Part shown: positions 6,024 through 48,950 of the stretch, piece by piece
How positions within the stretch are numbered: position 1 is the first letter of the stretch
Layout of the letters: every line of letters starts with the position of its first letter
Source of the DNA: Candidatus Iainarchaeum sp.
Lineage (GTDB): Archaea > Iainarchaeota > Iainarchaeia > Iainarchaeales > GCA-2688035
Assembly: GCA_017610205.1 (NCBI GenBank)
Contig: JAFCCL010000001.1
Coordinates: 81,883 to 145,882, forward strand
Direction of reading: 5' to 3'
DNA: 64,000 bases
The notes under the pieces: model-generated
Told to the model about the DNA's origin: nothing
Seen by the model: the letters and a program-made list of their open reading frames with translations, nothing else
Databases searched by the model: none
Program-made: the position numbers and the translations under genes

Positions 6024-6024
6024 A

Positions 6025-25959: not shown

Positions 25960-25961
25960 AA

Positions 25962-26123: not shown

Positions 26124-26157
26124 CTCATATACTTATTAACTCAGGATTTGTTTGAAT

Positions 26158-27758: not shown

Positions 27759-27794
27759 ATGCTATTGAATCACTTTTTTTTGGGTTTGACTAAT

Positions 27795-29384: not shown

Positions 29385-30635
29385 TTAAATTGGCACATTC
29401 CAAATTATATTTACGAGTATTGGGTTATAGTTTATTAACAACACTATATCAAACAAAAGCATACTGGAAAGAACAATCCAAACAAATGTCTTTGCCCATT
29501 TTTCCTGCCTGATTGTTTTCATAAAAGAAAGTAAACCTGCAATAAAAAGTATTGCGATAAGTCCAACTGTTCCAAACATCCATCTTGCATCAGGTCCTAC
29601 TACAAAAAAATTTATGTATGCAACTCCTGCAAGGTTTAAAAGAATTGGGAGAATAAGAACAGCTGTTATTAGTTTTTTTCTTTTGTTGTTCCATTTATTT
29701 CCAAGAATTAATTTTACAAACCCTATTAGTGCAACAATTGAAACAATTGCATAAAATCCAAAGAAAACAAATCTATATTCAGGAATTGTTGCAGTTCCAT
29801 ATTCCTGAAGCCACATTCCTGCAAATAAATATGTTAAAAAATAAGCAAGCCATTGAATATCAATTGCCATCATTGGCTTTAAAAAGCTTGGGAAAAAATT
29901 CCCCGATAGCAAAAGGTACCTGTAAAACGTGACTATTCCCAGCAATGGTACAGAACATGCCAAAATTCTTTTCCACAATTTTTCTTTTCCCTTAAATAAA
30001 AATACAAACCACGCAATTCCAAATGTTACTGCAACTGCAAGTCCTGTAAGCATCGTAAGTAAAACTCCAGCCATAAAAAGTCCGGCAATTGCCATATCTT
30101 TTGTCTTTTTTTCTTTAAACACTTTAATACTGTAGTATATTACCACTAGGCATAAGAGCCAGCTTAAAGTTCCATTACTGACTGTTGCGCTTGTAATTAT
30201 ATGTGTTGGAAGTAAAGCAACAAACATTGCACTTCCAAGTCTTACAATTTTTCCAAAATTCAGTTTTTTTGCAATAATATATGTTAGAAGAATGCAAGCA
30301 GTTCCAAACGCAACAGAAAGAAGCCTTAGAACATGCACAATAGTGTCAATGCTCTGGCTTGCGATTGGAATGTAAAAAATTGCTGCAATACTATGGAATA
30401 AAGGTGGTTGCGAAAGGCTTTCATTTGAAATGCTTGCAAGAGTTTCGTGTGTAAGCGGAATCATAGGCAGTCTGGCATTGTCTCCAATGAATTCAATGTA
30501 AAAAATATGAGCTCCTTCTTCAGGTCCAGACCAAACAGGAAAAAGTGCACTTCCTGCAAGTCTTAAACCCAACCCAAACAAAATTATAAGGACAATGACC
30601 TTAAATTCATTTTTTTCTCGCAATTTCAAAAACAT
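29385..30635 (-). CDS. GT-C-fold glycosyltransferase (ArnT/PMT-like, GT83/GT39-like), polyprenyl-phosphate-sugar dependent
   Basis: About 10-12 predicted TM helices. The first extracytoplasmic loop motif, SGPEEGAHIFYIE, resembles the DE.RYAE motif of ArnT/PMT. It is a functional analogue of AglS-type enzymes. Confidence 0.5.
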   Translation of the reverse strand: MFLKLREKNEFKVIVLIILFGLGLRLAGSALFPVWSGPEEGAHIFYIEFIGDNARLPMIPLTHETLASISNESLSQPPLFHSIAAIFYIPIASQSIDTIVHVLRLLSVAFGTACILLTYIIAKKLNFGKIVRLGSAMFVALLPTHIITSATVSNGTLSWLLCLVVIYYSIKVFKEKKTKDMAIAGLFMAGVLLTMLTGLAVAVTFGIAWFVFLFKGKEKLWKRILACSVPLLGIVTFYRYLLLSGNFFPSFLKPMMAIDIQWLAYFLTYLFAGMWLQEYGTATIPEYRFVFFGFYAIVSIVALIGFVKLILGNKWNNKRKKLITAVLILPILLNLAGVAYINFFVVGPDARWMFGTVGLIAILFIAGLLSFMKTIRQEKWAKTFVWIVLSSMLLFDIVLLINYNPILVNIIWNVPI

Positions 30636-30687
30636 TCACCTCCACTCAGAACTGAAGTCTTTTTTGAATGCATAATCTTAATCATAT

Positions 30688-30978
30688 CTACGAGTCCTCT
30701 TCAAATTCAATAAAATTACCGCTTTGAATTTTAGCCCTTGTGCTAATGCTTTCCTCTTCAGAATCGCATTTCAGGCGTTCAACTTCAATATTTTGATTAT
30801 ATATACAATCTTCTTTTTTGCCATAACACAAATACCTAGTATTTTTAACATGCCAGCAGGCAAAATTCTCTTCGAAACTGTAGTCAACAGGTCCTTGAAA
30901 CAAAATCAAAAAATCCACTGCAACTATGATTATTAGTATAACAAAAAAACAAATTAATCTAAAAAACTTAACCGGCAT
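30688..30978 (-). CDS. small secreted/anchored cysteine-containing hypothetical protein
   Basis: An N-terminal hydrophobic helix followed by four Cys and an acidic C-terminus. Confidence 0.25.
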   Translation of the reverse strand: MPVKFFRLICFFVILIIIVAVDFLILFQGPVDYSFEENFACWHVKNTRYLCYGKKEDCIYNQNIEVERLKCDSEEESISTRAKIQSGNFIEFEEDS

Positions 30979-31014
30979 TTAATATCACCACGCTCTTTTT
31001 TTCCAAAAAAACAC

Positions 31015-31935
31015 TTACACGTCCTTTTTGAATTTGGCAAAGCATCTTTTAATGCCTTCATCCAAACTAATTTTTGGCTTCCAATCCAATTCCGAACAAG
31101 CTCTTGAAATATCGCACACAAGTCGTTGCACTTCACAGGCTTTGTTAAGGCGATTTATTTCAATGTTGTTTCCAGTTGCCTTTTTAACTTTTTCAGCAAG
31201 GTTGTTTAGTGAAATAACCTTGCCTGATCCAAGATTAAAAATTTTAAATCTGCTTTTGTTAAAACCAGCTGCAATAACCCCGCTTGCAAGGTCTTCTGCA
31301 TGCAAAAAATCCTTTTCAGAGCTTCCGTTTCCATAAATCACAATCGGCTTGTTCCTTAATGCATTAAAAACAAAGTTTGCTATAACACCTGTTCCCTTGG
31401 AAACTACCTGCCTTTCACCATAGCTTGTTGTTGGCCTTAGAATTGCATAATCAATTCCGTAAACTCTGTTAAAGTATTCAATATATTTTTCAATTGCCAT
31501 TTTTGAAACAGCATATGGTGTCATTGGTTCAAGTCTGGCATTTTCTTTTGCCGGAATGGTTTTTGTGTTTCCGTAAACAACAATAGAACTCAAGTAAACA
31601 ATTTTTTTTACTCCAAGTTCACATGAATCCCTCAAAATATTAATGCTTGGCAAAATATTTGTTTCTGCGTCAAAAACAGGCTTTTCAATGCTTGTTCTTG
31701 GAACAGTTGTGTGAATGCAGTGAAAAACATATTCAATTCCATCCAATGCCTGCCTTACATCCTTTTGATTAATGTAATCTCCTTTAACCTTTTCAATTTT
31801 TGTTTCAATTGCCTTTAAGTTGTTCTTGCCAGTAAACTTGTCAAAGACTCTGACATTGCAGCCTTTTGCAACAAGCTTCTCTGCAACAAAGCTTCCAATA
31901 AGTCCGTTTCCTCCTAAAACAAGGCAATTATTCAT
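31015..31935 (-). CDS. NAD-dependent nucleotide-sugar epimerase/dehydratase
   Basis: NNCLVLGGNGLIGSFVAEKL Rossmann motif and an SDR fold over its full length. Confidence 0.8.
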   Translation of the reverse strand: MNNCLVLGGNGLIGSFVAEKLVAKGCNVRVFDKFTGKNNLKAIETKIEKVKGDYINQKDVRQALDGIEYVFHCIHTTVPRTSIEKPVFDAETNILPSINILRDSCELGVKKIVYLSSIVVYGNTKTIPAKENARLEPMTPYAVSKMAIEKYIEYFNRVYGIDYAILRPTTSYGERQVVSKGTGVIANFVFNALRNKPIVIYGNGSSEKDFLHAEDLASGVIAAGFNKSRFKIFNLGSGKVISLNNLAEKVKKATGNNIEINRLNKACEVQRLVCDISRACSELDWKPKISLDEGIKRCFAKFKKDV

Positions 31936-31976
31936 AAAAGTAATAGGACAGCTAAACCCTTATTAATTTTTCCAAA

Positions 31977-32984
31977 CTAAATCGTTATTTTTTTAGGGAA
32001 CAAAAGAGCCTGCGTTGTTCCAATACTGTATGCAATGTGTGTTATAAAAACAATAAAGATGCAAAATGGTACATGAACTGGTTTGACAGAATGCTCAAGG
32101 CAGTCAATTCCAATAGCGGTTGCATAAAACACAAAGCTGGCAGCATAAAAAATCCACAGTATTGGAAACACGATGGCAACAAATGGCATAAAAACAACGT
32201 AAAATAAGAATGCAATTACCACTGTGTTTGTAATTCTAAAAGAATCAGTTTCCTTCAATACATCTATTTTTCCCCTTCCATAATCTTTAAGTCTTGGAAT
32301 GTATTCTGAAAAACTTCTCTTGTTGTGATGGTGCACTGCAGTTTCTTTGTTGTACAGTATAAGCTTTCCTGTTTTTCTGAGTAGGATGCATGCTTTTACA
32401 TCCTCACCTGTTGGGCAATTTTCGTCAAACTTTCCTATCTGAAGTAAAAGGTTTCGTTTTATTATAATGTTGCTTGTTGGCAGTTCCTTGTATACTAGAA
32501 TTCCTTTATGTTTTTTGAAAGTACTATGCATTCCTGTATCTGTTACGTAAAGATGCATAGTTTTTATTGCAAGTGATTCCCAAAGTCCTATGTTTTTTGG
32601 TTCGAGGTTTGGTCCACCGACAGCGGCAACTTTATCATCCCTCAAAAATGGCAATGCACTTTCAAGCCATTTGGATTGCGGGTATGCATCTGAATCAATA
32701 CACGCTATAAATTCAGCTTTTGTGTTTTCAATTCCAATATTGCGTTTTGCTGAAGCAACTCCTTTTGGAAGGTTTTGCCCGGTAGGAATACATCTTATTT
32801 TCTCCGACTTTTTTTTACCAAACTTTTCAACCAGTGCCTGTTTTTCTATTTTGTTGTCTGGTAATAATATTAATTCAAAATCCTGTCTTGTCTGATTCAA
32901 ACAACCTTCAATACATTCCAAAACAAAACTGTCCAATGTCTTAAATGGTACAATTATTGCAAACAAAGGCTTTTTTTCCATCAT
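31977..32984 (-). CDS. GT2 glycosyltransferase with C-terminal TM helices
   Basis: FAIIVPFKTLDSF ... ILLPDN region of the GT2 fold, with a hydrophobic C-terminus. Confidence 0.7.
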   Translation of the reverse strand: MMEKKPLFAIIVPFKTLDSFVLECIEGCLNQTRQDFELILLPDNKIEKQALVEKFGKKKSEKIRCIPTGQNLPKGVASAKRNIGIENTKAEFIACIDSDAYPQSKWLESALPFLRDDKVAAVGGPNLEPKNIGLWESLAIKTMHLYVTDTGMHSTFKKHKGILVYKELPTSNIIIKRNLLLQIGKFDENCPTGEDVKACILLRKTGKLILYNKETAVHHHNKRSFSEYIPRLKDYGRGKIDVLKETDSFRITNTVVIAFLFYVVFMPFVAIVFPILWIFYAASFVFYATAIGIDCLEHSVKPVHVPFCIFIVFITHIAYSIGTTQALLFPKKITI

Positions 32985-34075
32985 TTCCCAACCTGAAGCT
33001 TGAGTCTAATCCATTGAAGCAGAACTTTCAAAAGTTCTGTTGCGTTGAATGCAACATTTGACGTGAGCTGGCATTCAAACGTGCAAAAACATTTGCTTTC
33101 TCTTATGGATTTTGCAATCTTTCTATTTTCTTTTGTTGAAAGCAGTTTTTTCAAATTAAAGTCAAAGTTTTTGAGATTTCCAAGAAAAAGATCCTGCCTG
33201 ATTTCACAGGCAAATACATTACCATTTGAATAAATGATGCAATTTGTTGTAGCAGCATAACATGGTAACTGAAATTTGTTTTCCTTCAAAGTTTTGAGAA
33301 TCACCTGCTTATATCTTTTGTTTAAACATGTATAAAAGTCCCCAAAGATTTGGTGGCCCTTATATTTCTTTTTTGCAAGATCTGTTGCAATTTCTTTGTT
33401 CACTTTCATATATTGTTCAATTGTTTCCTTTGATTTCCTTGCGTTTTTTGGTTCGCCTCTTAAAAAATTTATCTGAAACTGGTTTATATCAAAGTCTGAA
33501 AGCATTTTTTTGTACACAGACATCGTTTCTTGCGCATTGTCTTCACTAATAGTGTAAATTACTCCAATCTTTAGGTTTTTGAATCTTATTTTAAGTTCTA
33601 AAAGCTTTGCTAAAGTTTTGCACGCATTTGAGAATGCATTTTTTGATCCTCTTATTTGATTATGTATTTTCTCAGTGCCATCAATTGAAACTGAAATATT
33701 GAAAATTATATCAGGGTTTTCTTCAGCCATCTTGGTTGCTTTTGCTACAATTTTTTCAGTAAACGTGCCGTTTGTTGGAATTGAAATTATTTTTACACTG
33801 CTGTTTTTTGCAAACAATGCTGCGATTTTGTCAATGTCTTCTCTGAGAAATGGTTCACCCCCTGTTAGACTTACATGTATCAAACTCGGCATGCTTTTTG
33901 ATATTTTTTCAATTTCTTTGAGTGGAATTTCTTCAGGCTTGTTCAGTGATTTGTGAAAAAAACAGTGGCTGCATTTAAGATTGCATCTGCTTGTGATATA
34001 AAGAATCACATAAACAGGAAGCATGTTTTTCTTGAATAAGACATTTTTTGCCTGTTTCAATATTGAAATTTTCAT
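32981..34075 (-). CDS. Radical SAM / SPASM-domain protein
   Basis: YITSRCNLKCSHCF (CxxxCxxC) plus a C-terminal Cys-rich region (CYAATTNC...CEIR...CFCTFEC) typical of a SPASM/twitch auxiliary cluster. Confidence 0.75.
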   Translation of the reverse strand: MKISILKQAKNVLFKKNMLPVYVILYITSRCNLKCSHCFFHKSLNKPEEIPLKEIEKISKSMPSLIHVSLTGGEPFLREDIDKIAALFAKNSSVKIISIPTNGTFTEKIVAKATKMAEENPDIIFNISVSIDGTEKIHNQIRGSKNAFSNACKTLAKLLELKIRFKNLKIGVIYTISEDNAQETMSVYKKMLSDFDINQFQINFLRGEPKNARKSKETIEQYMKVNKEIATDLAKKKYKGHQIFGDFYTCLNKRYKQVILKTLKENKFQLPCYAATTNCIIYSNGNVFACEIRQDLFLGNLKNFDFNLKKLLSTKENRKIAKSIRESKCFCTFECQLTSNVAFNATELLKVLLQWIRLKLQVGK

Positions 34076-35484
34076 AAAAAACCGCCTCTTTTCAACAGCT
34101 TGTTTTTCCTGTTAATAAATTCTCTTTCCATCTTAAGCGACTGCTTGTTTAAAATAACATCAAAACACATTTTCAACACCTTTAGCGGGTGGAAAATTGC
34201 CTTGTAGAGTAGGAACGTAAAGTAAAGTTCTTTAACATATTTATTCACTTCCAAACTGTTTGGATACCATCCAGGTACTGTTCCTATATTTAGGTCGTCA
34301 ATTCCCTTTATATTTTTGTTAAAATATTTTTTCCTAATTTCTGTATTTGGATATGGAATACATGGAAACACACCAACTTCATCCACTCCAATCCTTGCAA
34401 GCCTTTTCAGATATGCCCTTGTCTTCTGTTTATCATCTTCAGTTTCAACTGGTAATCCAACGACAAAGAACGCGGTTGTTTTTATTCCAACATTCTTACA
34501 ATTTTTTATACAATTTGCAATGTTTTCAAGATCAATATGCTTGTTGTAAACTTCTTTAAGGATTCTTTGACTTCCTGATTCAGGTGCAAACACCAACAAT
34601 TTGCATCCGCTTTCTTTCATTAGCTTAAGTGTTTCAAGGTCAAGGTACTCGGATCTTACTCCGTTTGGTGTTGTCCAAGTTATCCTGAGTTTTTTTTTCT
34701 TAATAAGCCTGAAGATTTTTTTTGCTCTCTCAATATTAAGCGTAAGGTTGTCATCTTCTATTTCAAATTCAGTTGTGCCATATTTTTCAATACAATGTTG
34801 AATTTCTTTAACAAAATTTTCTGGTTTTCTTGCAACCCAATGCCTGCGCCAGAATACAGCGCTTGAGCAATAGGTACAATTGTATGGACATCCCCTTGAA
34901 GAAATTATTGGAGTGAATTTTTTGTTTACTGGCCCGTGGCTCCTTTTGGCTTTCCAGTAATTTTCTAATGGAAAAAGATGCCTTGCTGGAAATGGCAGCA
35001 TATCAAGATTTTCAATGAACTCTTTTTTTTCCCTGCTTACAATCTTTCCATTTTTTATATATGCGATTCCATTAATTGCCTCAATTGAACCACTTTTTTT
35101 TGACAGTTTGTCAATAAGTTTTAACAGAGTTTCCTCTGCTTCTCCAAGTACTGCATAGTCTACTCCCTTCTCAAGGAACCTTTTATAATTTGCTGTTGCC
35201 TCGTTTCCGCCAATTATTATCTTTTTTTTCGGAAATCTCTTTTTAAGTCTTGAAACCAGATCAAGATAAACCTTGTGCTGTGAAGTAAAGTTTGCTGAAA
35301 TGCAGATTAATTCACTTTCTTTAGGAATCATTTCGATTAATTCTTCAATATCAAGGCCTCTAAGGAATAATCTGTGTTTCCAATCGCTTACCTTCTCTAT
35401 CCCAAGCCCAAGAGCGTCAATTACCTTTACCTTAAAACCTTTTTTTAGAAGATAGGCTGCAAGGTATGCAAGGCCCAATGGCAT
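34072..35484 (-). CDS. B12-binding domain radical SAM protein
   Basis: N-terminal LGLAYLAAYLLKKGFKVKVID (B12-binding-like) and SRGCPYNCTYC radical SAM motif. It overlaps the SPASM gene by 4 nt. Confidence 0.8.
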   Translation of the reverse strand: MPLGLAYLAAYLLKKGFKVKVIDALGLGIEKVSDWKHRLFLRGLDIEELIEMIPKESELICISANFTSQHKVYLDLVSRLKKRFPKKKIIIGGNEATANYKRFLEKGVDYAVLGEAEETLLKLIDKLSKKSGSIEAINGIAYIKNGKIVSREKKEFIENLDMLPFPARHLFPLENYWKAKRSHGPVNKKFTPIISSRGCPYNCTYCSSAVFWRRHWVARKPENFVKEIQHCIEKYGTTEFEIEDDNLTLNIERAKKIFRLIKKKKLRITWTTPNGVRSEYLDLETLKLMKESGCKLLVFAPESGSQRILKEVYNKHIDLENIANCIKNCKNVGIKTTAFFVVGLPVETEDDKQKTRAYLKRLARIGVDEVGVFPCIPYPNTEIRKKYFNKNIKGIDDLNIGTVPGWYPNSLEVNKYVKELYFTFLLYKAIFHPLKVLKMCFDVILNKQSLKMEREFINRKNKLLKRGGFL

Positions 35485-35534
35485 AGTTGTAACAAAAATC
35501 TGGCTTCCTGGGATTTCTGCAACTGGTGGATTAA

Positions 35535-36407
35535 TTAAGACGATTGGTTTGCTGTAGCTCGTGCAATCACCACTTTTAACCTTTTTACTCTGTTTCTTAT
35601 AATGATTAAGTCAAGTAGCATTTTTGCTATATCAGTTCCTTTAACTTTGCTGTCCTTGTCATTGTCCCAATTTACTGGACATTCTTTGATTTTAAATCCA
35701 AGAGCTTTTGCTATTGCAAGTAATTCAGCATCAAAAGTCCAACCTTCTATTTTTTGCAGGCTAAAAACCTTTATTGCACAATCTCTTTTGAAAAGCTTGA
35801 AACCACATTGGCTATCGCTTATATCCAACTGTAATATAAATGAAACAAGTCCGGCAAAGCCTGTTCCAAGCATATATCTAATTAACCCCCTTGACTTGAT
35901 GTTTGACTCTGGCAGGTTTCTTGAACCGATAACAATATCATAATCCTTTATATACTGCAAAAAGTTATTCAAGAAAATTAATGGAGTACTTAAATCAACA
36001 TCTGTGAACAATATAATTTCTTTTTTGCTGGCAAGAACTCCTTTTTTCACAGAATACCCTTTGCCTCTGTTTTTTTTGTTCCTTAAAAGTCTTATGCCTG
36101 GTTGTTTTGCTTCCATGGCTGTGTTGTCTGTGCTACCATCATCAACTACAATTATTTCAAAATTATTCAAGTTATTTTTTTTCAGAAATTCTCTGATTTC
36201 ATCAAGCGTTTTGGAAATTTTTTTCTCTTCATTGAATGCAGGTACAACTATAGAAATTCCTGAAATTTGTTCTCTTTTTGCCTTTTGAATTTCAGCCGAG
36301 TTGAGTTTGGACCTTGTTTTATTTTTCATGTTATACTCCAATACAATTATCAATTTAAAATAAACTGCGACATTAAATAAGCAGCTTTCTAAATCTAATG
36401 CTTCCAA
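35535..36407 (-). CDS. GT2 dolichyl-phosphate sugar synthase-like glycosyltransferase (DPM1/AglD/AglJ-like)
   Basis: ISIVVPAFNEEKKISKTL...IIVVDDGSTDNT signature. Confidence 0.7.
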   Translation of the reverse strand: MEALDLESCLFNVAVYFKLIIVLEYNMKNKTRSKLNSAEIQKAKREQISGISIVVPAFNEEKKISKTLDEIREFLKKNNLNNFEIIVVDDGSTDNTAMEAKQPGIRLLRNKKNRGKGYSVKKGVLASKKEIILFTDVDLSTPLIFLNNFLQYIKDYDIVIGSRNLPESNIKSRGLIRYMLGTGFAGLVSFILQLDISDSQCGFKLFKRDCAIKVFSLQKIEGWTFDAELLAIAKALGFKIKECPVNWDNDKDSKVKGTDIAKMLLDLIIIRNRVKRLKVVIARATANQSS

Positions 36408-37263
36408 TAATTCTGTAAAATTTTATTGCAAAGACATATCCAATTCCTGCAATAACAATTGCAAGAAAGTGCAAAGGGCTTTTGTTTTCAAGCATTACAA
36501 TTCCGCGTGGCGATCCGAGTTTTAATTTTTTGCTGCTTCCCGCCCATTTATTAACAACAACCTTAAAGTCCTGCCTTGGATCAACCAAAAATCCTAGCTT
36601 AACATGCAAAAAATCTTTTGCAAGCTTTGAGTGCTTTTTGTAAAGAAGTGGGTCATTTTCGTGGTAATGCAGCCTTTTCAAAACATATCCAATCATTGCC
36701 TTTTTTCCCTTTGGTGCAATCTCTTTGTGGTCATGCTTGTAATCTGCCTTAACGACTTTGTATTCAAAACCCAAATCCATTATGCTGAATGTAAGATCGG
36801 TGTCTTCCCTGTAATAAAAGAACTTTTTGTCATATCCCCCAACTTTGTCAAGCAATTCTTTCCTGAAAGCTGTTGAAGTTCCACCAAAGCTTCCAAAACT
36901 GCTTACCACCCCGACTTTTGGGCCTTCAAATCCCTTTACCAAATCGCGCAGCCATTCCTTGCTTGGAATGCAGTCGTGGTCCATATTAACAACAATTGGG
37001 AATTTTGCAACCTTAATGCCTTCGTTTCTTGCAGTGCAAACGCCCATGTTTCTTCCATAGCTTATAACTTTTACCTTTTTGTTTTCTCCAAACTTTTTGT
37101 GCAGCATTTCAATTGTACCGTCTCTGCTTCCGTCATCCACCACAATTATTTCATACTCGTTTGGATAATCAAGTACCAGCATTGCATCCAAAACCCGCTC
37201 AAGCACAACCTTGTTGTTGTAAGACGCAATTACAATACTTGCTTTTGGAAAATTAAATGCCAT
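36373..37263 (-). CDS. GT2 glycosyltransferase with C-terminal TM helix
   Basis: IVIASYNNKVVLERVLD...EIIVVDDGSRDGT signature. Confidence 0.7.
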   Translation of the reverse strand: MAFNFPKASIVIASYNNKVVLERVLDAMLVLDYPNEYEIIVVDDGSRDGTIEMLHKKFGENKKVKVISYGRNMGVCTARNEGIKVAKFPIVVNMDHDCIPSKEWLRDLVKGFEGPKVGVVSSFGSFGGTSTAFRKELLDKVGGYDKKFFYYREDTDLTFSIMDLGFEYKVVKADYKHDHKEIAPKGKKAMIGYVLKRLHYHENDPLLYKKHSKLAKDFLHVKLGFLVDPRQDFKVVVNKWAGSSKKLKLGSPRGIVMLENKSPLHFLAIVIAGIGYVFAIKFYRIIGSIRFRKLLI

Positions 37264-37267
37264 GGTA

Positions 37268-38386: not shown

Positions 38387-38438
38387 TCGTGTTCAGCCCA
38401 AACAAGGTCTTTTTTTCAGCAGATTTTTTCCAATCTTC

Positions 38439-39554: not shown

Positions 39555-39562
39555 TTTATCAC

Positions 39563-40612
39563 CTACAAATCCTTAAACATTTTTTTATTTTCTTTAACCC
39601 ACTCATAAAGTTTCTGAACTCCTTGCTTTGCTCCAATTTCGGGTTTCCAGCCTAAAATATTTTCTGCCTTTGAAATATCTGAAACATAAACAGGCTGGTC
39701 CCCAGGACGCCAGTCACTGTATCTGATATCTATTTTTTTTCCAAAAAATTCTTCAAGATATGCCAACAGCTCAAGCAATGACATTGTGTTTTTGGGGCCT
39801 CCGCCTATATTGAATATCTGGCCTTTTGCCTTTTCAATTTTTTGTGTAGCAATAGCGTATGCTTTTACAAGGTCGTCAATATGCAGCACATCCCTTACCT
39901 GCTTTCCGTTGCCGTAAATTGTAAGCTTTTTCCGAAGTGCTGACGCAATAGTAAACCATGCAACCCACCCCTGGTCTTCTATTCCAAACTGCCTTTGGCC
40001 ATAAATGCAGCTTTGCCTAAACACAACTGTGTTCATGCCATAAATTCTTGCATAATCCCTAGTATACTGGTCAGCACACCCTTTGCTGCAACCATAAGGG
40101 CTATGAAAATCCAAATTTGTTGATTCGGAAATTCCTTTTGGAAAATCTTCATATTCATACCTGTTATTTCTTTCAATAACCTTTACTTCTTCCATTCCGC
40201 CATAAACCTTGTTTGTGCTGCTGTAAAAAAATGCAGCTTTGTCAGCATTTTTTCTTAGGGCTTCAAGGACATTAAATGTTCCAAGTGCATTCTCTTCAAA
40301 GTCCTTTCTTGGTTCTGTTACACTTGTTGTAACCGCCACCTGTGCCGCAAAATGGTAAACAGCATCACTGCCTTTTACAGTTTCCTCAAGCTGCTTTTGA
40401 TCTGTTACAATATCTGCTTTAATAACTTTTATGTTTTCGTGTCTTTGTTTAAGCCATTCAACATTTTCTTTATAGCCAGGTCTTGAAAAATTATCAAATA
40501 TAATTACTTTTTTGCAGCTTTTTGCAAATTTATCCGCAAGGTTGCAGCCGATAAATCCTGCGCCTCCGGTAATAACTATTTTTTCCATCAATTCACCAAT
40601 TATTTTATTCAA
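39563..40612 (-). CDS. NAD-dependent nucleotide-sugar epimerase/dehydratase
   Basis: KIVITGGAGFIGCNLADKF Rossmann motif and extended SDR architecture. Confidence 0.8.
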   Translation of the reverse strand: MNKIIGELMEKIVITGGAGFIGCNLADKFAKSCKKVIIFDNFSRPGYKENVEWLKQRHENIKVIKADIVTDQKQLEETVKGSDAVYHFAAQVAVTTSVTEPRKDFEENALGTFNVLEALRKNADKAAFFYSSTNKVYGGMEEVKVIERNNRYEYEDFPKGISESTNLDFHSPYGCSKGCADQYTRDYARIYGMNTVVFRQSCIYGQRQFGIEDQGWVAWFTIASALRKKLTIYGNGKQVRDVLHIDDLVKAYAIATQKIEKAKGQIFNIGGGPKNTMSLLELLAYLEEFFGKKIDIRYSDWRPGDQPVYVSDISKAENILGWKPEIGAKQGVQKLYEWVKENKKMFKDL

Positions 40613-40672
40613 TTACTATCAATCTATTGGAAAATTCATCTTAAATACCATTTTGGTGCAATATTCAAATTC

Positions 40673-41386
40673 CTATTGCATTTTTTTAATGAACTTTTTG
40701 CCAACTGCCTTAACCTGTTTTGGCATTCCAAACCTGATGTTTGCCTTGCTTACTGTTGTAAAAAAATTCTTAAGAAGCAAAACATGCCTGTTTGCAATCC
40801 TTTCCCTAACACTGTTTTTTTCAACCTTTTCAGCAAACGTAATTGAGTCAACAAAACCAATGTTTCTAAAATGCCTTGATTTGAAAACACTGTCTTCCAC
40901 AACCCTTTTTGGCCCGTCTACAAGCATTGTGTCATGAAAAGCCATTATTCCCTGCTCCCTGACTTTTGGAAACCATAATTCAAAATCCTGCTTTGCATGC
41001 TTGTAAGAATGGTCCCCGTCAATGAAAATAAGTGCAATTTCTTTTCCAAATTCTTTTGCGGCATCTTCAGAGGTTTTAACAACAGGCTTTACTAAATCAA
41101 ATGCCTTTGCTGCCTTAAGGTTTTGCTTAAATTCCTTAAAGCTGTTTCCCTGCGGCATCTCCGGCGAGCTTGTATGGGGGTCAATTGCAACAATCTTTTT
41201 TCTCTGTCCATCCTTGCTTCCTTTTGCAAGCCATATGGTTGAACGGCCTTTCCAGCTTCCAATTTCTACAATTTCTCCATTTCCACTGCATTCCCTGGCA
41301 AGCCTGTACAAAAGAATTCCCTCTGGCTTTGAAAGAAAACCAGGTGCCTTCATTGCCCATTTTTCAGCTTCCTTTAATGACATCAT
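40673..41386 (-). CDS. Class I SAM-dependent methyltransferase (TylF/MycF-like O-methyltransferase fold)
   Basis: GEIVEIGSWKGRSTIWLA motif I-like region and about 237 aa. Confidence 0.55.
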   Translation of the reverse strand: MMSLKEAEKWAMKAPGFLSKPEGILLYRLARECSGNGEIVEIGSWKGRSTIWLAKGSKDGQRKKIVAIDPHTSSPEMPQGNSFKEFKQNLKAAKAFDLVKPVVKTSEDAAKEFGKEIALIFIDGDHSYKHAKQDFELWFPKVREQGIMAFHDTMLVDGPKRVVEDSVFKSRHFRNIGFVDSITFAEKVEKNSVRERIANRHVLLLKNFFTTVSKANIRFGMPKQVKAVGKKFIKKMQ

Positions 41387-41462
41387 ATCACTTTCATTAA
41401 TTTTTTCATTAATTTAAAACAATTTTTCCTTCCTTTTTTTCCAATCAGTTTTGCTTTCTTAT

Positions 41463-42389
41463 TTAGAACAATTTTGCCTTCCTTTTCTTTCTTTGTTTCA
41501 AAACTTCCTGCCAGTTTGCAATATTTTCCGCATATGTTCCAAGCAAGTGCATTGTCATTCCCTGTTCAAAACTGTTTAAAAAAATAAGTCCCAATCCAGG
41601 TACGTGTTTTGCCATATCACCCAGGCTTAAATTGTAAAGCATTACTCTAATCCTATTTCTTTCAAGCAATTTGTACCTTGCAATTGCCTTGATGCTTTTT
41701 GTTGTGTCCTGCCCGCCAATATGGTAAACTCTGCTTGCATTTGTTTCAACTACCTTAAACCCGGCATTTCTTGCCCTGTAGCACCAGTCCTGTTCCTCTC
41801 CATAAATGGGTGACCAAAGCCTTGCGTCAAGGTTTCCAACCCTCTTCAATGCTTTTTTCGAGTACATCATTGCCGCTCCGCACACAGCAAGCCTTTCCCT
41901 TACAACTTCCTGCCCTTTAAGTCCTTTCCCATAATTTTTTTTGCCAACAATAAGGCTTCCAACAGCACCAACCATTCCCTTTAGGTCTTCAGCTGCTTCA
42001 ACAGCCTTTGAAAGCCATTTTTTTTCAACAAGGGTATCATTATCCAAATGGTAAATATACTTTCCCCTGCTTTCCTTAAACCCCTGGTTTACTCCGTTGC
42101 TATAGCCAACATTTTTTTTGTTCAAAACAAGCTTTTTTACAATTCTCCTGCGCTTCATTTCCTTTAACATCTTCACGCTTCCATCAGTACTTCCGTTGTC
42201 TACAACAATAATTTCATAATTTGGATAGCTTGTGTTTTTTTGAACAGACTTAATACAATCAGCAGTAAGCTTTTTTCCATTCATGTTCAAAAGCATTACG
42301 CTTACAAGCGTATTTGCAACCCTGCTTGAGTTTTTTGAACCCTTGCTTGTTTTTTTTGTACTTTTGCTTGATTTTTTTGCAGCACTCAT
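41463..42389 (-). CDS. GT2 glycosyltransferase with lysine/serine-rich N-terminal extension
   Basis: VSVMLLNMNGKKL...EIIVVDNGSTDGS signature. Confidence 0.7.
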   Translation of the reverse strand: MSAAKKSSKSTKKTSKGSKNSSRVANTLVSVMLLNMNGKKLTADCIKSVQKNTSYPNYEIIVVDNGSTDGSVKMLKEMKRRRIVKKLVLNKKNVGYSNGVNQGFKESRGKYIYHLDNDTLVEKKWLSKAVEAAEDLKGMVGAVGSLIVGKKNYGKGLKGQEVVRERLAVCGAAMMYSKKALKRVGNLDARLWSPIYGEEQDWCYRARNAGFKVVETNASRVYHIGGQDTTKSIKAIARYKLLERNRIRVMLYNLSLGDMAKHVPGLGLIFLNSFEQGMTMHLLGTYAENIANWQEVLKQRKKRKAKLF

Positions 42390-42886
42390 GTTTCTTCCTC
42401 CAAAAAGAGGGAAATTCTTTTTATCAAGTTTTCCTTGTCTGACGAAAGCTCTGGCTTGAATGAAAAAGCCTGCAAAATTTGTTTCTCCAATTCCCTCGTG
42501 TCAAAAACTGTTTTTGCTTTGTTCTTTTTTTCAAGGGCTTTTGCAAGGTCAAGCTGGTGGTCGTTTGTGTGCTCTCCAAACTTTTTCAAACGAGGCACTA
42601 TAATCAACGGCTTTTTGTTCAAAAATGCATTTATTATTGTGCCTGCTCCGCCATGGCTTAGCACTATGTCAGCCCACTGCATTTTTTCATCAAATTCTTT
42701 TCCTTTAACAAATTTTTTAAAAGCAAAATTCTTTGGCTTGTAATTTGAATTGCCTGTTTGTCCAAAAATTTTCCACTCGCTGTGCTTTGCTGCAACAATG
42801 TCAAGTTCTTTAAGTAAACGGTCAAAGGGCTGTGAATGTGTTCCGACGCTTGCAAATATTTTTTTCACACCATTTCCAATCGCCAT
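42386..42886 (-). CDS. Alg13-like glycosyltransferase subunit (GT28 C-terminal domain; UDP-GlcNAc binding)
   Basis: IFASVGTHSQPFDRLL resembles the Alg13/MurG C-terminal domain motif VTVGTTxFD. The protein is 166 aa. Confidence 0.65.
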   Translation of the reverse strand: MAIGNGVKKIFASVGTHSQPFDRLLKELDIVAAKHSEWKIFGQTGNSNYKPKNFAFKKFVKGKEFDEKMQWADIVLSHGGAGTIINAFLNKKPLIIVPRLKKFGEHTNDHQLDLAKALEKKNKAKTVFDTRELEKQILQAFSFKPELSSDKENLIKRISLFLEEET

Positions 42887-43347
42887 TAAAACACACCTCC
42901 TTCATATTCTGCTTTTGGAAAAAACTTTTTGTTCTCAGGCCATTGAACAAGAAACAGGTCGGCCTTTCCGTACATTAATTTTCCGCTGAGGCTTGGCTTT
43001 TTTATTCTGCAAAAGGACTCAATAAACACAATTTTTTTTCCGAAAAATTTTGCAATAAGGCATGTTGGAATTGCGGTGTCTGCCCCTGTGCTTATAACTA
43101 CTGTTGGTTTTTTCCAAAGGAAAAGCCACAGTGACTGTACAAAGTTTATTGCCAGATTGATTGGATTTCTTTTAGGGCATGAAACAAAAAATACTTTTTC
43201 TTTTTTTGCCAGGTCAATTGCATTAAGCCTTTTGTCCGAAACAAAATAATGCGGTTTGCCCTGCCATGCTTTTTTAAGCTGAAGCAGCTCTGTCAAATGC
43301 CCTCCTGCACTGCAGGCAAGGCAGATTTTTTCCTGCATTAAAAACAC
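42886..43347 (-). CDS. Alg14-like glycosyltransferase subunit (membrane-anchoring/acceptor-binding partner of Alg13)
   Basis: CLACSAGGHLTELLQL resembles the Alg14 GSGGHTxEM motif. It is 153 aa and directly adjacent to the Alg13-like gene. Confidence 0.65.
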   Translation of the reverse strand: MFLMQEKICLACSAGGHLTELLQLKKAWQGKPHYFVSDKRLNAIDLAKKEKVFFVSCPKRNPINLAINFVQSLWLFLWKKPTVVISTGADTAIPTCLIAKFFGKKIVFIESFCRIKKPSLSGKLMYGKADLFLVQWPENKKFFPKAEYEGGVF

Positions 43348-44385
43348 CTAAAAAAGCCTGAAGTATGAAATTGAAAATACTATTATGCTTAGTATTGCTT
43401 GTGCAAGCAAAATTATTTCAACAACCTTTTTTTCAGTAAAGCGCCCTATTCCCATAATAATATGTGTTACGCTTGCAGTATATTTTGGAGCCTTTAAAAT
43501 TCCTGATTTTGTTGGAATTCCAAAACTTTGCCTTTGCATTCTGTATCTTGCCTTAAGCACTAGCTCAATAAAGTAAATTCCTAAAAGCAATATTCCTATT
43601 TTTTCCATGTTTCCCAAAATTGCTGTTGTTGCAATACTTGCCCCAATCATCAAAGTAAGCGAGTCGCCTCCAAACACTTTTGCCGGGAACCAATTAAATC
43701 GAAGGAATGCTATTAGTGCACCAAGCATTGCAATTGAAACAATCGCTGCCTCCATTTGTCCCTGAGTTAAGGCAACTGCGAGCATTGTGGTAGAAATTAT
43801 TGCACCAAGTCCTGCTTCAAGCCCGTTTAAACCAGCAAGCATGTTTGTTGCATTGCTTGCTCCGGTAACTCCTATTGGGACAAAAATAAGGCTGTAAATT
43901 AACCCAAAGCTTACCACTCCAATAAAAGGTATTACAATTTCTGCTGGTGCAAAGCCAAAAAACGGAATTGATATTGGAGGATTGCTTATTTCTATTGCCA
44001 TAAGTGGCAATGCTGCAAAGACAGGTATGAGAGCATGCTGCCATTGTCTTATGCCCTTTCTCCATCCTATAAGGTCGTCAATTACTCCCAAAAATCCAAC
44101 CATTACAATTGTGCTAAATCCTGCAAGCAAAAAGGTCAGGTTTATTTCAATCCATTCAAGGTATGAAAACATAAAAATGCTTACAATAATTCCCGCACTA
44201 AAGCCAAGCCAGACACATATTCCGCCCATTTCCGAAATTTTGGGCTTGTTAAACTTGTTCATGTCAATGCCGGTAATATGCCTTGCCTTCATTCTTGCAA
44301 TTAAAAACGGCAAAAATTTGTTTGTTACAATAAATGCTACAAAAAAACACAAAAGCAGTGTTGCAATAACAGCAGGCATAGGCAT
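43348..44385 (-). CDS. aglH: UDP-GlcNAc:dolichyl-phosphate GlcNAc-1-phosphate transferase (GPT/Alg7/MraY-WecA superfamily)
   Basis: Multi-TM protein with NATNMLAGLNGLEAG (NxxNxxDGxDGL-type motif). Confidence 0.8.
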   Translation of the reverse strand: MPMPAVIATLLLCFFVAFIVTNKFLPFLIARMKARHITGIDMNKFNKPKISEMGGICVWLGFSAGIIVSIFMFSYLEWIEINLTFLLAGFSTIVMVGFLGVIDDLIGWRKGIRQWQHALIPVFAALPLMAIEISNPPISIPFFGFAPAEIVIPFIGVVSFGLIYSLIFVPIGVTGASNATNMLAGLNGLEAGLGAIISTTMLAVALTQGQMEAAIVSIAMLGALIAFLRFNWFPAKVFGGDSLTLMIGASIATTAILGNMEKIGILLLGIYFIELVLKARYRMQRQSFGIPTKSGILKAPKYTASVTHIIMGIGRFTEKKVVEIILLAQAILSIIVFSISYFRLF

Positions 44386-44471
44386 AATTAATCAGCTTTA
44401 AGGATTTAAAAAGAAACCATTCTATTTTTGTAACAACCCAAAGCACATTTTTTCAGCAAAAAAGCCATTGC

Positions 44472-46634
44472 CTAATTTGCATAAAGTGCTTCTTTGTTTA
44501 CCTTGAATATTCTCATTCCGGCTGCATTAAAAACTTCGCCAAAGTATTTCATTGTCTCATCTTCGTGGAACCAAAGCTTTGAAAGCATGCTTTCGTTTAC
44601 AGCAGGATTTGTAATATAAAGCTCTGAATTGTCCTCTGCTCTATAAACATACAATGGAACAACTCCCTCATACATCTGGTTTGAAACACTTGTCCATTTT
44701 GCAGGAATAGTTCCCATTTGATCTGCAGGAATATTATTTGTTCCACATGCAAACCCTGCTTCGCTTTGACTGCAAGGCATTGCAGCATGCGGTGCAACAA
44801 GGAATTGTATTATGCGAGGGTCGCTGCTGTCCATTGTATCATACCCATAATTTCCAAAAGACCCGATTTTGAGGAATGTATCACTGTCAAGTACGATATA
44901 ATCAAAATCATAGTCTCTTGCAATTTTTAACGCATTTTCAAGGCTGCTTTCAATAACAAAAAGTGAAAAGTCGCGGTTTCCCTCAAAACTCATATTCCTG
45001 TTATCAGCAGAAACCGCCCTTTCTCCAATAAAACTAATCCAATGCCCTTCATCCCACCAGTTGAAAAATTTTGCATCCTCAGGAGTGTTTGCAGGGTCCT
45101 GCATCCAGTGCAGTGTTGCCTTCCAGTCAGGATAACCGCCTTCAATGTGCGGAACCTTGTCTGGCACAAAAATTGTAGCAGAAGCAATTCCAACCAAAAG
45201 CATAAAGCCAAGGCAAAGCACAACAAGCTTTTGCTCAAGGTCTGTTCTTCCTTTAAGGTAATAAAACATTTCTGCAGCAATCACACCAGCAGCTGCCGCT
45301 ATTGGCAGGCCAAAAGTGTAAGTGAATTTGAGCTTGTACCACGCCATAAAAAAAGTAATCATTATCCAAAAGAAAATCAAGACACTAAGATGGTCTTTTT
45401 TGTTCCTGTAAAACATTATTGGAATCAAAATCATTGCAAGCCATGGGAAAATAATTAATGCATTATATTTTATTCCAAAAAACTGGTGGCCGGTGTTTTC
45501 CTCCCCAACAGTCATTCCAAGAACCGAGTTTTCCTCAAACAATTTCGGGGTTGTCATAAAAGTAAGAGCCAGTGAAATTACTGCAATATAAAGCAAAACA
45601 ACTGCAATAATATTAATTGTTTTATTTCCTGATTTTCTTTTGCCAACCTCCCTGTTTGCATAAGCAAGATACACTATAAATGCTCCGATTGCAAGAACAA
45701 CTGCGACTGCTGCCGAAAAACCCATTGCTTCAGGCATTCCAAAAGCCGCTGCCGCCTTTGAAACAGAATTTGTTGCATAACTCAAAGCACTAGTATGCCA
45801 GTTTGCGCCATAATTTAATGCAGCAATTACCCAAAAAATAACAAAAGAAATTGCAAAAAGCTTAACAAAATCAACAAGCTTTTTGAAACCCATTTTTGTA
45901 TAAATCCCAATCACACCAAAGAAAACATAAAGCCCTAATACCAGAGGGATAAGCAAGTACATATCCCAGGTTATTGCCATTAATCCAAAGAAAATTCCAG
46001 AAAGCACTGCATTAATTATTCCCTTTTTATTAAACACAGGATTCTTAACTGCTCTTGCAAAGAAAACCAATCCAATCACAAGCCACAAAAACCCAAGGCT
46101 GTCTTCTTCAAAAAAACCTGCAAGCGTTCTGTAAACATAGCTTGGAATAACAGCCGCAATCAAGGCCATTACATAGCCTGCTTTTTTGTTGTAAAGTTCC
46201 TTTCCAAAGAAAAACATTGCAGCAACAGTTAATGCCCCAAAAAGAGCCGGCAAAATTTTAACAAACAATATCCAGGTGTCCTTATCATAAGGCGCTCCCA
46301 AAGTTGCAACCTTATAAATGCCTGCAGTAAACTGCCAAAAGAACTGGTTTCTTGGAGGAGCAACTCCTCCTTCAACAAAATAATATGCAGTTGGATCAAC
46401 AGCAGGAACAACCCCTGTTTGCAAAAGCTCTCCAGTCATCCTTGCATGGTAATAGGAATCAAAACCAAACATATACTCATACTTTAAAAGATGCCCTCTT
46501 ACGCCAAAAGCAAGAGCAAAAATCAAAAAAAGCAGAAAAAGCTGTTTTCTGTCAACATTCTTTATTTTGCCAACAATGTCAGATGCATTAACAAGCTCAG
46601 GCATTCTAGGTTCCCTCAATAAAAAAAAGAGCAA
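44472..46634 (-). CDS. aglB: Oligosaccharyltransferase AglB (STT3 homolog)
   Basis: 720 aa, with a multi-TM N-terminal domain containing FGFDSYYHAR (STT3 DxxY...R-type loop motif) and a periplasmic domain with FFNWWDEGHW (WWDYG variant). Confidence 0.85.
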   Translation of the reverse strand: MLFFLLREPRMPELVNASDIVGKIKNVDRKQLFLLFLIFALAFGVRGHLLKYEYMFGFDSYYHARMTGELLQTGVVPAVDPTAYYFVEGGVAPPRNQFFWQFTAGIYKVATLGAPYDKDTWILFVKILPALFGALTVAAMFFFGKELYNKKAGYVMALIAAVIPSYVYRTLAGFFEEDSLGFLWLVIGLVFFARAVKNPVFNKKGIINAVLSGIFFGLMAITWDMYLLIPLVLGLYVFFGVIGIYTKMGFKKLVDFVKLFAISFVIFWVIAALNYGANWHTSALSYATNSVSKAAAAFGMPEAMGFSAAVAVVLAIGAFIVYLAYANREVGKRKSGNKTINIIAVVLLYIAVISLALTFMTTPKLFEENSVLGMTVGEENTGHQFFGIKYNALIIFPWLAMILIPIMFYRNKKDHLSVLIFFWIMITFFMAWYKLKFTYTFGLPIAAAAGVIAAEMFYYLKGRTDLEQKLVVLCLGFMLLVGIASATIFVPDKVPHIEGGYPDWKATLHWMQDPANTPEDAKFFNWWDEGHWISFIGERAVSADNRNMSFEGNRDFSLFVIESSLENALKIARDYDFDYIVLDSDTFLKIGSFGNYGYDTMDSSDPRIIQFLVAPHAAMPCSQSEAGFACGTNNIPADQMGTIPAKWTSVSNQMYEGVVPLYVYRAEDNSELYITNPAVNESMLSKLWFHEDETMKYFGEVFNAAGMRIFKVNKEALYAN

Positions 46635-48831: not shown

Positions 48832-48950
48832 GATTAGCAGCTTTAAGACCGCTCCAAGCAAAAACTCAGTGCAAAACCTTTTCCCCGCAGGTCTTAACTT
48901 CCGGGTTCGAGATGGGACCGGGTGTTTCCCCTGTAGCATGGCCGCTAATC
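48832..48950 (-). rRNA. rrf: 5S ribosomal RNA (unlinked to other rRNA genes in this window)
   Basis: The minus strand reads GAUUAGCGGCCAUGCUACAGGGGAAACACCCGGUCCCAUCUCGAACCCGGAAGUUAAGACCUGCGGGG...GCUGCUAAUCG. The loop-C region is universally conserved. The 5' and 3' ends form a 10-bp helix I (GAUUAGCGGC/GCUGCUAAUC). An oligo-T run follows. Confidence 0.75.

Follow-up and report, generated by a model that had tools for sequence, protein, structure and literature searches.

A conserved aglB, GPT and split Alg14-like/Alg13-like gene module as a candidate N-glycosylation locus in Iainarchaeota

Was the split Alg13/Alg14 glycosyltransferase of eukaryotes borrowed from bacterial exopolysaccharide (EPS) systems, or was it already serving archaeal N-glycosylation? 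The question is touched by a stretch of 64,000 nt from Candidatus Iainarchaeum sp. (GCA_017610205.1, contig JAFCCL010000001.1, forward-strand positions 81,883-145,882; the window hereafter), in which a gene for the oligosaccharyltransferase (OST) AglB/STT3 is followed by genes for an Alg7/AglH-type polyprenyl-phosphate N-acetylhexosamine (HexNAc)-1-phosphate transferase (GPT) and for two small proteins resembling Alg14 and Alg13. N-glycosylation in DPANN archaea is to our knowledge essentially uncharacterised, and the fused Agl24 of Sulfolobus is the only archaeal second-step enzyme that we know to have been characterised biochemically. The region studied opens a large surface-glycan island of a member of the Iainarchaeota (Diapherotrites, DPANN), comprising its head and the first of its variable blocks, and it bears on the dispute over whether eukaryotic Alg13/14 are of bacterial (Lombard, 2016) or archaeal (Meyer, 2022) origin. 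An original prediction, made from the letters of the window, had placed here a eukaryote-like N-glycosylation core at the head of a 17-kb unidirectional operon array.

Read from 46634 to 29385, the region holds 17 open reading frames (ORFs; at least 90 amino acids (aa), taken as a non-overlapping series), all on the minus strand (Table 1). Pfam matches place AglB/STT3, GPT, the Alg14-like gene and the Alg13-like gene at the head in the order that had been predicted, with 13 more ORFs following, and the motifs quoted for them (WWDEGH, NATNMLAGLNGL, GGHLTEL and VGTHSQPFD) were all found. The GPT, Alg14-like, Alg13-like and adjoining family 2 glycosyltransferase (GT2a) genes are spaced by 0, -1 and -4 nt, the halves of the pair being, as also foreseen, separate ORFs that overlap by 1 nt at their junction (TAATG).

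The 17 proteins were compared by tblastn with 81 non-redundant related loci, mostly from Iainarchaeota metagenome-assembled genomes (MAGs). The order AglB, GPT, Alg14-like, Alg13-like was colinear in 46 of the 81, with eight others, including Candidatus Iainarchaeum andersonii, showing a divergent arrangement (<GPT<AglB against Alg14L>Alg13L>) and a further six having an adjacent GPT and a contig end before AglB. Linkage of the head was kept down to ~40% identity, GPT ranging from 50 to 90% across the Iainarchaeota loci and the Alg14-like gene being the best conserved of the head genes (69% identity in locus L002 against 41% for AglB). In 40 of 74 loci the halves of the pair overlap or directly adjoin each other, and in all 74 a stop codon parts them, so that they are never fused; the fused form of ~320-360 aa (Agl24/MurG type) was seen neither in the window nor in these loci. 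Relatives of the Alg13-like protein come nearly all from Candidatus Iainarchaeum/Diapherotrites MAGs (phylum Iainarchaeota, DPANN). Beyond the head, the block from GT2a to GT2b is common only to the close relatives L001, L007 and L008, and the segment of radical S-adenosylmethionine (SAM), GT2, short-chain dehydrogenase/reductase (SDR) and 96-aa genes (35484-30688) has no counterpart at its position in the sampled loci, the head being conserved and the tail lineage-variable as is usual for surface-glycan loci. The archaeal module is also present on MAG contigs whose labels read 'Chloroflexi bacterium', 'Falkowbacteria' and 'Thaumarchaeota' (L005, JAFCCG010000001.1; L022, JAFCBY010000057.1; L021, JAFCCH010000012.1; and L006), with AglB and GPT 68-90% identical to those of the window and, in L005, L10e and TBP as well; these bacterial and Thaumarchaeota labels look like mis-binning or mis-classification.

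Four-gene synteny, intact catalytic motifs, the tight spacing of GPT and the pair and the lack of EPS export genes together support an AglB-linked module, and make it likely, as far as sequence goes, that these genes form a conserved unit for the initiation and transfer steps of N-glycosylation, the pair attaching sugar number two to dolichyl-diphosphate (Dol-PP)-HexNAc. The predicted AglB-headed cluster with a split pair directly after GPT is thus borne out by gene order and synteny.

The first enzyme of such a pathway would be the GPT, a member of Pfam Glycos_transf_4 (114 bits, E 7.4e-33). WecA, like MraY, carries a DGxDGL motif. The window GPT has the motifs IDDLIG, NATNMLAGLNGLEAG and VFGGD, of which NATNMLAGLNGLEAG aligns to NAINILAGINGLEAG of DPAGT1, with AGLNGLEAG replacing the DGLDGL of MraY (E. 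coli counterpart NAVNLTDGLDGLA, DGLDGLA, checked against PDB 8G01); it also lacks the HHH motif of MraY, which was checked in the same entry. Among PDB sequences human DPAGT1 was the best match (62 bits, E 7.5e-16), MraY gave 29-41 bits and WecA gave no match, while the NCBIfam WecA model scored 32 bits against a cut-off of 326. With DPAGT1 as its closest solved protein and with an AGxNGLEAG motif, the GPT is by sequence of the Alg7/AglH, that is eukaryote/archaea rather than WecA/MraY type, a typing made against solved structures and NCBIfam models alone. This agrees with the original prediction, the WecA/WbpL-type grouping named there as its counter-case not having been found (DPAGT1 62 bits against 41 for MraY). 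The substrate is most likely GlcNAc-1-P. A MurG- or pseudomurein-type role was considered and rejected, the NCBIfam MraY, MraY_archaea and MurG models all scoring far under their cut-offs.

The transferase that would end the pathway, AglB, matches Pfam STT3 with 56.8 bits (E 3.7e-15, cut-off 24.5) and AglB_core-like with 30.1 bits (cut-off 27), so that both the STT3 transmembrane (TM) domain, with ~11 hydrophobic segments, and the C-terminal soluble core are present; its closest solved structure is human STT3A (E 7.6e-11, PDB sequence search). It carries FFNWWDEGHWISF, the stretch with the WWDEGH motif, and its acidic loop stretches GFDSYYH and FFEEDSLGF align with EFDPYFNYR and SYDNEGIA of STT3A. 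In 35 related AglBs the fourth residue of WWDxG was E in 22, Y in 5, N in 3, Q in 3, K in 1 and V in 1, with the GH that follows and a downstream DNRN nearly invariant. The residues after DNRN, NRDFSLFVIE, fit clearly neither the DK nor the MI consensus. An N-M-S sequon comes right after DNRN in the window AglB, at a position that presumably corresponds to that of the DNNT sequons of eukaryotic STT3. The starts of AglB (TTG), the Alg14-like protein (GTG) and GT2c (TTG) are longest-ORF calls and the real starts probably lie a few codons downstream, that of AglB probably at an ATG 10 codons inside the TTG-started ORF.

It is the pair between these two enzymes on which the question turns. The Alg14-like half, which contains SAGGHLTEL, matches part of the Pfam Alg14 model (70.8 bits, E 1.9e-19), and the Alg13-like half, with VGTHSQPFD, matches Glyco_tran_28_C (75.9 bits, E 4.8e-21). 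Against curated NCBIfam models the Alg14-like half scored 145 bits for PssD/Cps14F (cut-off 110) and the Alg13-like half 130.3 bits for PssE/Cps14G (cut-off 120), while as a control eukaryotic Alg14 (75.9 and 105.8 bits) and Alg13 (62.2 and 97.6 bits) all stayed under the cut-off on the same models. Since the eukaryotic proteins score nearly to cut-off there, the PssD/PssE and Alg14/Alg13 families appear from their sequences to be a continuum. MurG (29.8 bits, cut-off 250) and the MJ1255 family (32.6 bits, cut-off 195.9) were both remote from the pair. By BLASTP the Alg14-like half gave 99-109 bits with bacterial halves from Lactococcus, Herpetosiphon and Erysipelotrichaceae and 40 with a divergent Rhizobium half, compared with 75 for primate and 44-47 for yeast Alg14 and no match to E. 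coli MurG; the Alg13-like half gave 83-116 bits with bacterial halves, 55 with human ALG13 (an unverified sequence), 37 with the yeast protein and 27 with E. coli MurG. The reference bacterial pairs were taken from annotated plasmids and the yeast and primate sequences from the protein database, where they were looked up with query sequences that proved 98-99% correct against the database entries. By similarity and curated models, then, the pair is of the EpsE/EpsF type and nearer to most bacterial PssD/PssE halves than to eukaryotic Alg14/Alg13. 'Eukaryote-like', as the locus had been called, suits the GPT and the split architecture and does not suit the closest relatives of the pair.

Alignment showed that GGH, (V/I)ES and SLxGK (SLSGK in the window) are common to all Alg14-type halves including those of yeast and primates, and that SH(A/G)GxG and (N/D)(D/N)HQ are common to all Alg13-type halves (SHGGAGT and EHTNDHQ in the window), with the PRLKKFGEH segment of the PRLKKFGEHxNDHQ signature in the Alg13-like half shared by bacterial PssE-type proteins only. 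An AlphaFold model of the Alg13-like half (pLDDT 88.7) led in a fold search to the C-terminal nucleotide-sugar domain of GT-B UDP-glycosyltransferases, so the modelled fold would be that of a generic UDP-sugar domain that does not discriminate among donor sugars; the Alg14-like half had no match among PDB sequences at E <= 1. Neighbour-joining trees were made for each half (200 bootstraps; yeast and primate Alg14/13, four bacterial pairs and E. coli MurG as references), and in these the eukaryotes were monophyletic (100% and 88%) with the window halves outside their clade. As the star-like backbone had support below 30% and eukaryote monophyly alone was supported, these trees cannot place the pair, and they give no supported grouping with eukaryotes. 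In a published phylogeny eukaryotic Alg13/14 lie inside a clade with EpsE/EpsF-like sequences (PMC8993221). The original prediction had set an EpsE/EpsF-type affiliation of the halves against a GlcNAc-GlcNAc core, and formally the affiliation is what the 145 and 130.3 bits indicate; the dichotomy is nevertheless a false one, because the eukaryotic halves score 76-106 and 62-98 bits and the published tree nests Alg13/14 there.

In the pathway that we infer from these genes, with its substrates, linkage, heterodimer and order of steps, GPT would transfer HexNAc-1-P from a UDP-sugar to dolichyl phosphate on the cytoplasmic face, giving Dol-PP-HexNAc. The Alg14-like and Alg13-like proteins would assemble into one GT-B enzyme, the former supplying the acceptor side with the catalytic GGH and Glu and the latter binding the UDP-sugar. 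Alg13/14, Agl24 and EpsE/F have in common that they attach a sugar to a lipid-PP-monosaccharide in beta-1,4 linkage (PMC8993221), and by this family precedent the pair may add a second sugar in the same linkage, the donor candidates being GlcNAc (which would give a chitobiose core), Glc, Gal and GlcA. The pair is placed at the second step because its bacterial homologues follow an initiating phosphoglycosyl transferase, as seen directly in the bacterial loci L085 and L087, with a PNPT here in place of a PHPT. The variable GT2, GT4, SDR, methyltransferase and radical SAM enzymes would then lengthen the lipid-linked glycan and modify it. After flipping, a GT2 resembling Dol-P-sugar synthases may, together with a GT-C enzyme, attach a sugar at the outer face, and AglB would hand the glycan over to Asn residues of proteins that are secreted or lie at the surface.

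Several observations weigh against this reading. The gap between AglB and GPT (44386-44471) is 86 nt long with a T-run and a TTTAAA box, such that AglB and GPT would be on separate transcripts. It is the largest of several gaps of 41-86 nt that bear T-runs and TATA-like boxes, on account of which the array is probably transcribed as more than one unit; a single 17-kb operon was rejected on account of several such gaps, of 50-86 nt, and of the operon array once proposed the common minus-strand orientation stands, the single transcript probably does not, and the island extends further to the left. The pair is also found with ample flanking sequence and neither GPT nor AglB nearby in 10 loci, from Aenigmatarchaeota, Methanobacteriaceae, Erysipelotrichaceae and a few unclassified archaea, and is therefore not intrinsically tied to N-glycosylation. 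The Alg14-like half begins at the GGH loop without the N-terminal membrane anchor of eukaryotic Alg14, and TM prediction found no hydrophobic or TM segment in its 153 aa. A flippase (multi-TM, Wzx/MOP-like) was sought across the island and none was found. The characterised PssD/E, EpsE/F and Cps14F/G enzymes use UDP-Glc, UDP-Gal or UDP-GlcA and act on lipid-PP-Glc, not lipid-PP-GlcNAc. Within the superclade the donor is UDP-GlcNAc for Alg13/14 and UDP-Glc or UDP-Gal for EpsE/F, with GlcA the donor sugar of the fused WelK as named by NCBIfam, and since characterised relatives differ in this way the donor of the pair cannot be read from family membership.

A narrower claim would make the pair a true Alg13/Alg14 (Agl24-equivalent), a UDP-GlcNAc:Dol-PP-GlcNAc beta-1,4-GlcNAc transferase building a eukaryote-type chitobiose core. 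Its position directly after an Alg7-type GPT and beside AglB is the eukaryotic functional context, it shares the catalytic His and Glu, SH(A/G)GxG(T/S) and (N/D)(D/N)HQ with Alg14/Alg13, the eukaryotic proteins come nearly to cut-off on the PssD/PssE models, several homologues are annotated ALG13 by JGI, and a supply of UDP-GlcNAc is suggested, though not proved, by a UDP-GlcNAc 2-epimerase in another part of the island. Set against this are the higher scores to most bacterial halves than to eukaryotic ones with the PssD/PssE cut-offs passed, the PRLKKFGEH insertion shared with bacterial members only, the want of a supported tree grouping with eukaryotes, and the transfer of GlcA, Glc or Gal by characterised PssD/E, EpsE/F and Cps14F/G enzymes, the donor not being revealed by the sequences. 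On balance the claim is possible with the weight of evidence leaning somewhat the other way, and the predicted Dol-PP-GlcNAc2 core is plausible and unproven because the pair passes the PssD/PssE cut-offs yet the families are not separable.

It seems improbable that GPT, the pair and the downstream glycosyltransferases make a lipid-linked surface polysaccharide, lipoglycan or O-glycan that AglB does not transfer, AglB being adjacent through a shared 'envelope' neighbourhood. The family of the pair was typed on bacterial exopolysaccharide and capsule systems, the 86-nt gap could hold a terminator and a promoter, AglB-GPT and the pair are divergent in eight loci and the island has many more polysaccharide-type genes, but AglB stands beside GPT in both arrangements over a wide range of identity (54 loci), and a look through the 46-kb island found no tyrosine-kinase genes and none for a polymerase, for chain-length control or for export (Wzx, Wzy, Wzz, ABC transporter). 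Furthermore aglB-linked agl clusters are, going by the part of the Agl24 preprint that cites them, the norm in many archaea. A recent horizontal acquisition of the pair from bacteria, with no conserved role and an incidental arrangement in the window, is very improbable indeed. Some sequences of the split EPS-like clade were described as sure cases of horizontal transfer (Lombard, 2016; PMC4973528), those of DPANN and Euryarchaeota are reported to be mixed with bacterial sequences (Meyer, 2022) and the nearest non-archaeal relatives, from Erysipelotrichaceae, are 34-38% identical; at least 60 loci of Iainarchaeota type nonetheless have the pair in this place, at 40-90% identity, and no part of the module is better conserved (69% against 41% for AglB in L002), which indicates that the pair has long been retained vertically under selection within the phylum. 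The AglB-linked module remains the preferred reading.

Table 1. Genes of the array in minus-strand order, with the matches and properties recorded for each.
Feature	Position	Strand	Details
AglB/STT3 oligosaccharyltransferase	44472..46634	-	720 aa from TTG; ~11-13 TM; WWDEGH
GPT, polyprenyl-phosphate HexNAc-1-phosphate transferase, Alg7/AglH/DPAGT1 type	43348..44385	-	345 aa; ~8-10 TM
Alg14-like/PssD-type N-terminal half of split GT-B (predicted acceptor-binding)	42886..43347	-	153 aa; no TM anchor
Alg13-like/PssE-type C-terminal half (predicted UDP-sugar-binding)	42386..42886	-	166 aa; overlaps of 1 nt before and 4 nt after
GT2a	41463..42389	-	Pfam Glycos_transf_2, 92.6 bits; 4-nt overlap with Alg13-like gene
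Class I SAM methyltransferase, Methyltransf_24, CmcI/rhamnosyl O-methyltransferase-like	40673..41386	-	Pfam 96.1 bits
SDR nucleotide-sugar 4,6-dehydratase/4-epimerase	39563..40612	-	Pfam GDP_Man_Dehyd, Epimerase; NCBIfam dTDP-glucose dehydratase and GalE under cut-off
SDR epimerase/dehydratase with internal insertion	38439..39554	-	Pfam Epimerase match in two stretches; NCBIfam under cut-off
GT4 (GT-B, retaining)	37268..38386	-	Pfam Glycos_transf_1, Glyco_transf_4
GT2b	36373..37263	-	Pfam 100.6 bits
GT2c, Dol-P-hexose/polyprenyl-P-sugar synthase-like	35535..36407	-	Probable start ATG 36329
B12-binding radical SAM	34072..35484	-	Pfam B12-binding and Radical_SAM; NCBIfam Sden_1168 family 198 bits, under cut-off
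Radical SAM, NirJ/SPASM-like	32981..34075	-	Pfam Radical_SAM and Fer4_12; NCBIfam far under cut-off; 4-nt overlaps on both sides
GT2d with C-terminal TM helices	31977..32984	-	Pfam Glyco_tranf_2_3, Glycos_transf_2; 3-4 hydrophobic segments
SDR epimerase/dehydratase	31015..31935	-	Pfam Epimerase 166 bits; best NCBIfam LegB-like, under cut-off
96-aa ORF	30688..30978	-	One N-terminal TM helix
GT-C-like membrane glycosyltransferase, PMT/ArnT-like	29385..30635	-	~9 TM

Along the array the Pfam order is AglB/STT3, Glycos_transf_4, Alg14, Glyco_tran_28_C, GT2, Methyltransf_24, SDR, SDR, GT4, GT2 and GT2, with a B12-binding radical SAM, a radical SAM, a GT2, an SDR, the 96-aa ORF and a multi-TM protein after the third GT2. 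The content expected of this tail, with one GT4, three SDR, two radical SAM (one B12-binding), one methyltransferase and one GT-C-like gene, was recovered, save that there are four GT2 genes and not five plus two Dol-P-sugar synthase-like ones; just GT2c resembles the latter, matching the NCBIfam dolichyl-phosphate hexose transferase model with 66.7 bits and also PpgS and AglJ, all under cut-off. The forecast of a long, heavily modified N-glycan thus drew on an overstated gene tally. GT2a, by its overlap, is probably translationally coupled to the pair and is a candidate for adding the third sugar, its close same-position homologues occurring only in near relatives, while GT2b is the most widely shared glycosyltransferase beyond the head with a homologue of at least 40% identity in 30 of the 81 loci. 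The SDR at 38439-39554 is 64-90% identical in relatives. The B12-binding radical SAM protein, probably a C- or P-methyltransferase with a sugar as its substrate, has no same-position counterpart in related loci and among the matches listed only one in L026, at 30% identity; the 96-aa ORF has no Pfam or NCBIfam match and no homologue among the related loci. The GT-C, a candidate by analogy for the transfer of a Dol-P-sugar at the outer face, gave 23.8 bits with PMT_2 (gathering score 26.1) and 33 bits with NCBIfam LA_3751/3752, and its 50%-identical homologue in L001 has both PMT and PMT_2 matches. Attempts to read sugar identity from the SDR, radical SAM, GT4 and methyltransferase genes were set aside, all NCBIfam matches being under curated cut-offs. 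In L001, the closest relative, genes for a GT2, an LPG_synthase_TM protein and a PMT-type GT-C are consecutive (16910-19151), while in the window there is no LPG_synthase_TM gene and five genes (two radical SAM, GT2, SDR and the 96-aa ORF) sit between the GT2 and the GT-C.

The 17-kb array is not self-contained and forms the head of a larger surface-glycan island. Housekeeping genes (ribosomal protein L10e, 5S rRNA, TBP, KsgA, pyrimidine biosynthesis) border AglB on the right, and to the left glycan genes run on to at least position 388, giving an island of at least 46 kb. The 5S rRNA gene (48832-48949, minus strand; Rfam 68.7 bits) is isolated, with a methyltransferase gene on one side and the ThrRS-editing-domain and TBP genes on the other, and no tRNA was found in the whole 64 kb. 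At the left edge (388-3815, minus strand) a cytidylyltransferase-GNAT fusion (CTP_transf_3 and Acetyltransf_3), a DegT-family aminotransferase and an SDR suggest that a CMP-activated sugar of acidic or amino type (nonulosonic or KDO-like) is made; the island continues past the window. An APS kinase (157 bits in Pfam) is encoded along with a sulfotransferase (40.6 bits) and a protein bearing a PHP domain at 4501-5400 (-), 8341-8877 (+) and 8893-9858 (-); the PHP protein resembles a 3',5'-nucleoside bisphosphate (PAP) phosphatase (NCBIfam 168 bits, under the cut-off of 400), and the three are possibly a complete sulfation module, which would predict a sulfated surface glycan. A 688-aa fusion of GT2 and a FemAB-like GNAT (Acetyltransf_6) at 12877-14943 (-) is adjoined at higher coordinates by polysaccharide deacetylase and UDP-GlcNAc 2-epimerase genes.

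Four B12-binding radical SAM genes occur within 14 kb, at 21403-22872 (-), 26152-27672 (+), 27759-29312 (+) and 34072-35484 (-), in a DPANN host presumably unable to make cobalamin. The product of 21403-22872 aligns at full length to HpnJ (419.8 bits, cut-off 577.6). As HpnJ is, we take it, a hopanoid enzyme contracting a glucosamine ring to a cyclitol, an unusual sugar rearrangement by this product is possible. An ORF at 23606-24550 (-) with a weak LAGLIDADG_3 match (26.7 bits) lies to the right of an NTP-transferase gene (22869-23606) and is separated by a gap of 443 nt from an SDR gene (24994-25971). The GC content is 0.29-0.33 in the leftmost 12 kb (1-12000) against 0.34-0.41 elsewhere, and within the array 0.34-0.35 in the tail (30-36 kb) against 0.37-0.39 in the head, a pattern consistent with exchangeable glycan-island segments.

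The component families are all known, as are aglB-linked clusters in archaea, and split EpsE/F-like genes in DPANN were noted in 2022; what was not found described is that across the Iainarchaeota the split pair is physically linked, in a conserved manner, to AglB and an Alg7-type GPT, a literature search having returned no such description, although one in Nikolayev et al. (2020) is possible. At least one archaeal phylum, then, keeps the split form beside an OST and an Alg7 homologue, and the phylum-wide four-gene module offers, in an archaeal lineage other than that of Agl24, a second-step candidate that is open to testing, its small soluble proteins being easy to express. It is rather doubtful that across the whole phylum the split pair is wired into an Alg7-type GPT and STT3/AglB pathway making a Dol-PP-chitobiose core. 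If true, the Iainarchaeota would be the only prokaryotic lineage with an Alg7, Alg14 and Alg13 initiation set in its eukaryotic functional context, and the recruitment of the split pair into N-glycosylation would have happened in archaea.

The genes may also be compared with known systems. The late AglD/AglR/AglS step of Haloferax volcanii, at which a Dol-P-sugar joins the glycan after flipping, is matched in outline by the Dol-P-hexose synthase-like GT2 (35535-36407) and the GT-C (29385-30635) of the tail, whose homologues in L001 flank the LPG_synthase_TM protein, although in the window the matches are under cut-offs, the two genes are 5 kb apart and no AglR/Wzx-like flippase was found; the likeness is one of analogy only. 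The bacterial PssD/PssE, Cps14F/Cps14G and EpsE/EpsF pairs (and the fused WelK/SpsK) are nearest in sequence and likewise consist of split, overlapping ORFs directly after an initiating transferase. There, however, the initiating enzyme is a PHPT (Glc-1-P) and the context one of Wzx/Wzy/tyrosine-kinase export, whereas in the window it is a PNPT (HexNAc-1-P) with AglB alongside, in an archaeal host and presumably on a dolichol carrier. AglH and Agl24 of Sulfolobus acidocaldarius (PMC8993221) similarly combine an Alg7-type first enzyme with a second from the MurG/Alg14-13 superfamily in which the His (GGH) and Glu are conserved. Agl24, in contrast to the window enzyme, which is split and falls in the EpsE/F-Alg13/14 sister clade, is one fused polypeptide of ~327 aa in a separate clade (Crenarchaeota/Bathyarchaeota), and aglH and agl24 are not tightly clustered with aglB. 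Eukaryotic Alg7 (DPAGT1) and Alg13/14 differ in that Alg14 carries the N-terminal TM anchor, Alg13 has no bacterial-type PRLKKFGEH insertion and the window pair scores lower to both than to most bacterial halves. They share with the window the PNPT subtype, a split GT-B with GGH...ES and SHxGxG...NHQ halves and an STT3-family transferase ending the pathway; in the window, unlike in eukaryotes, the genes of the pair and the GPT are grouped with that of the OST.

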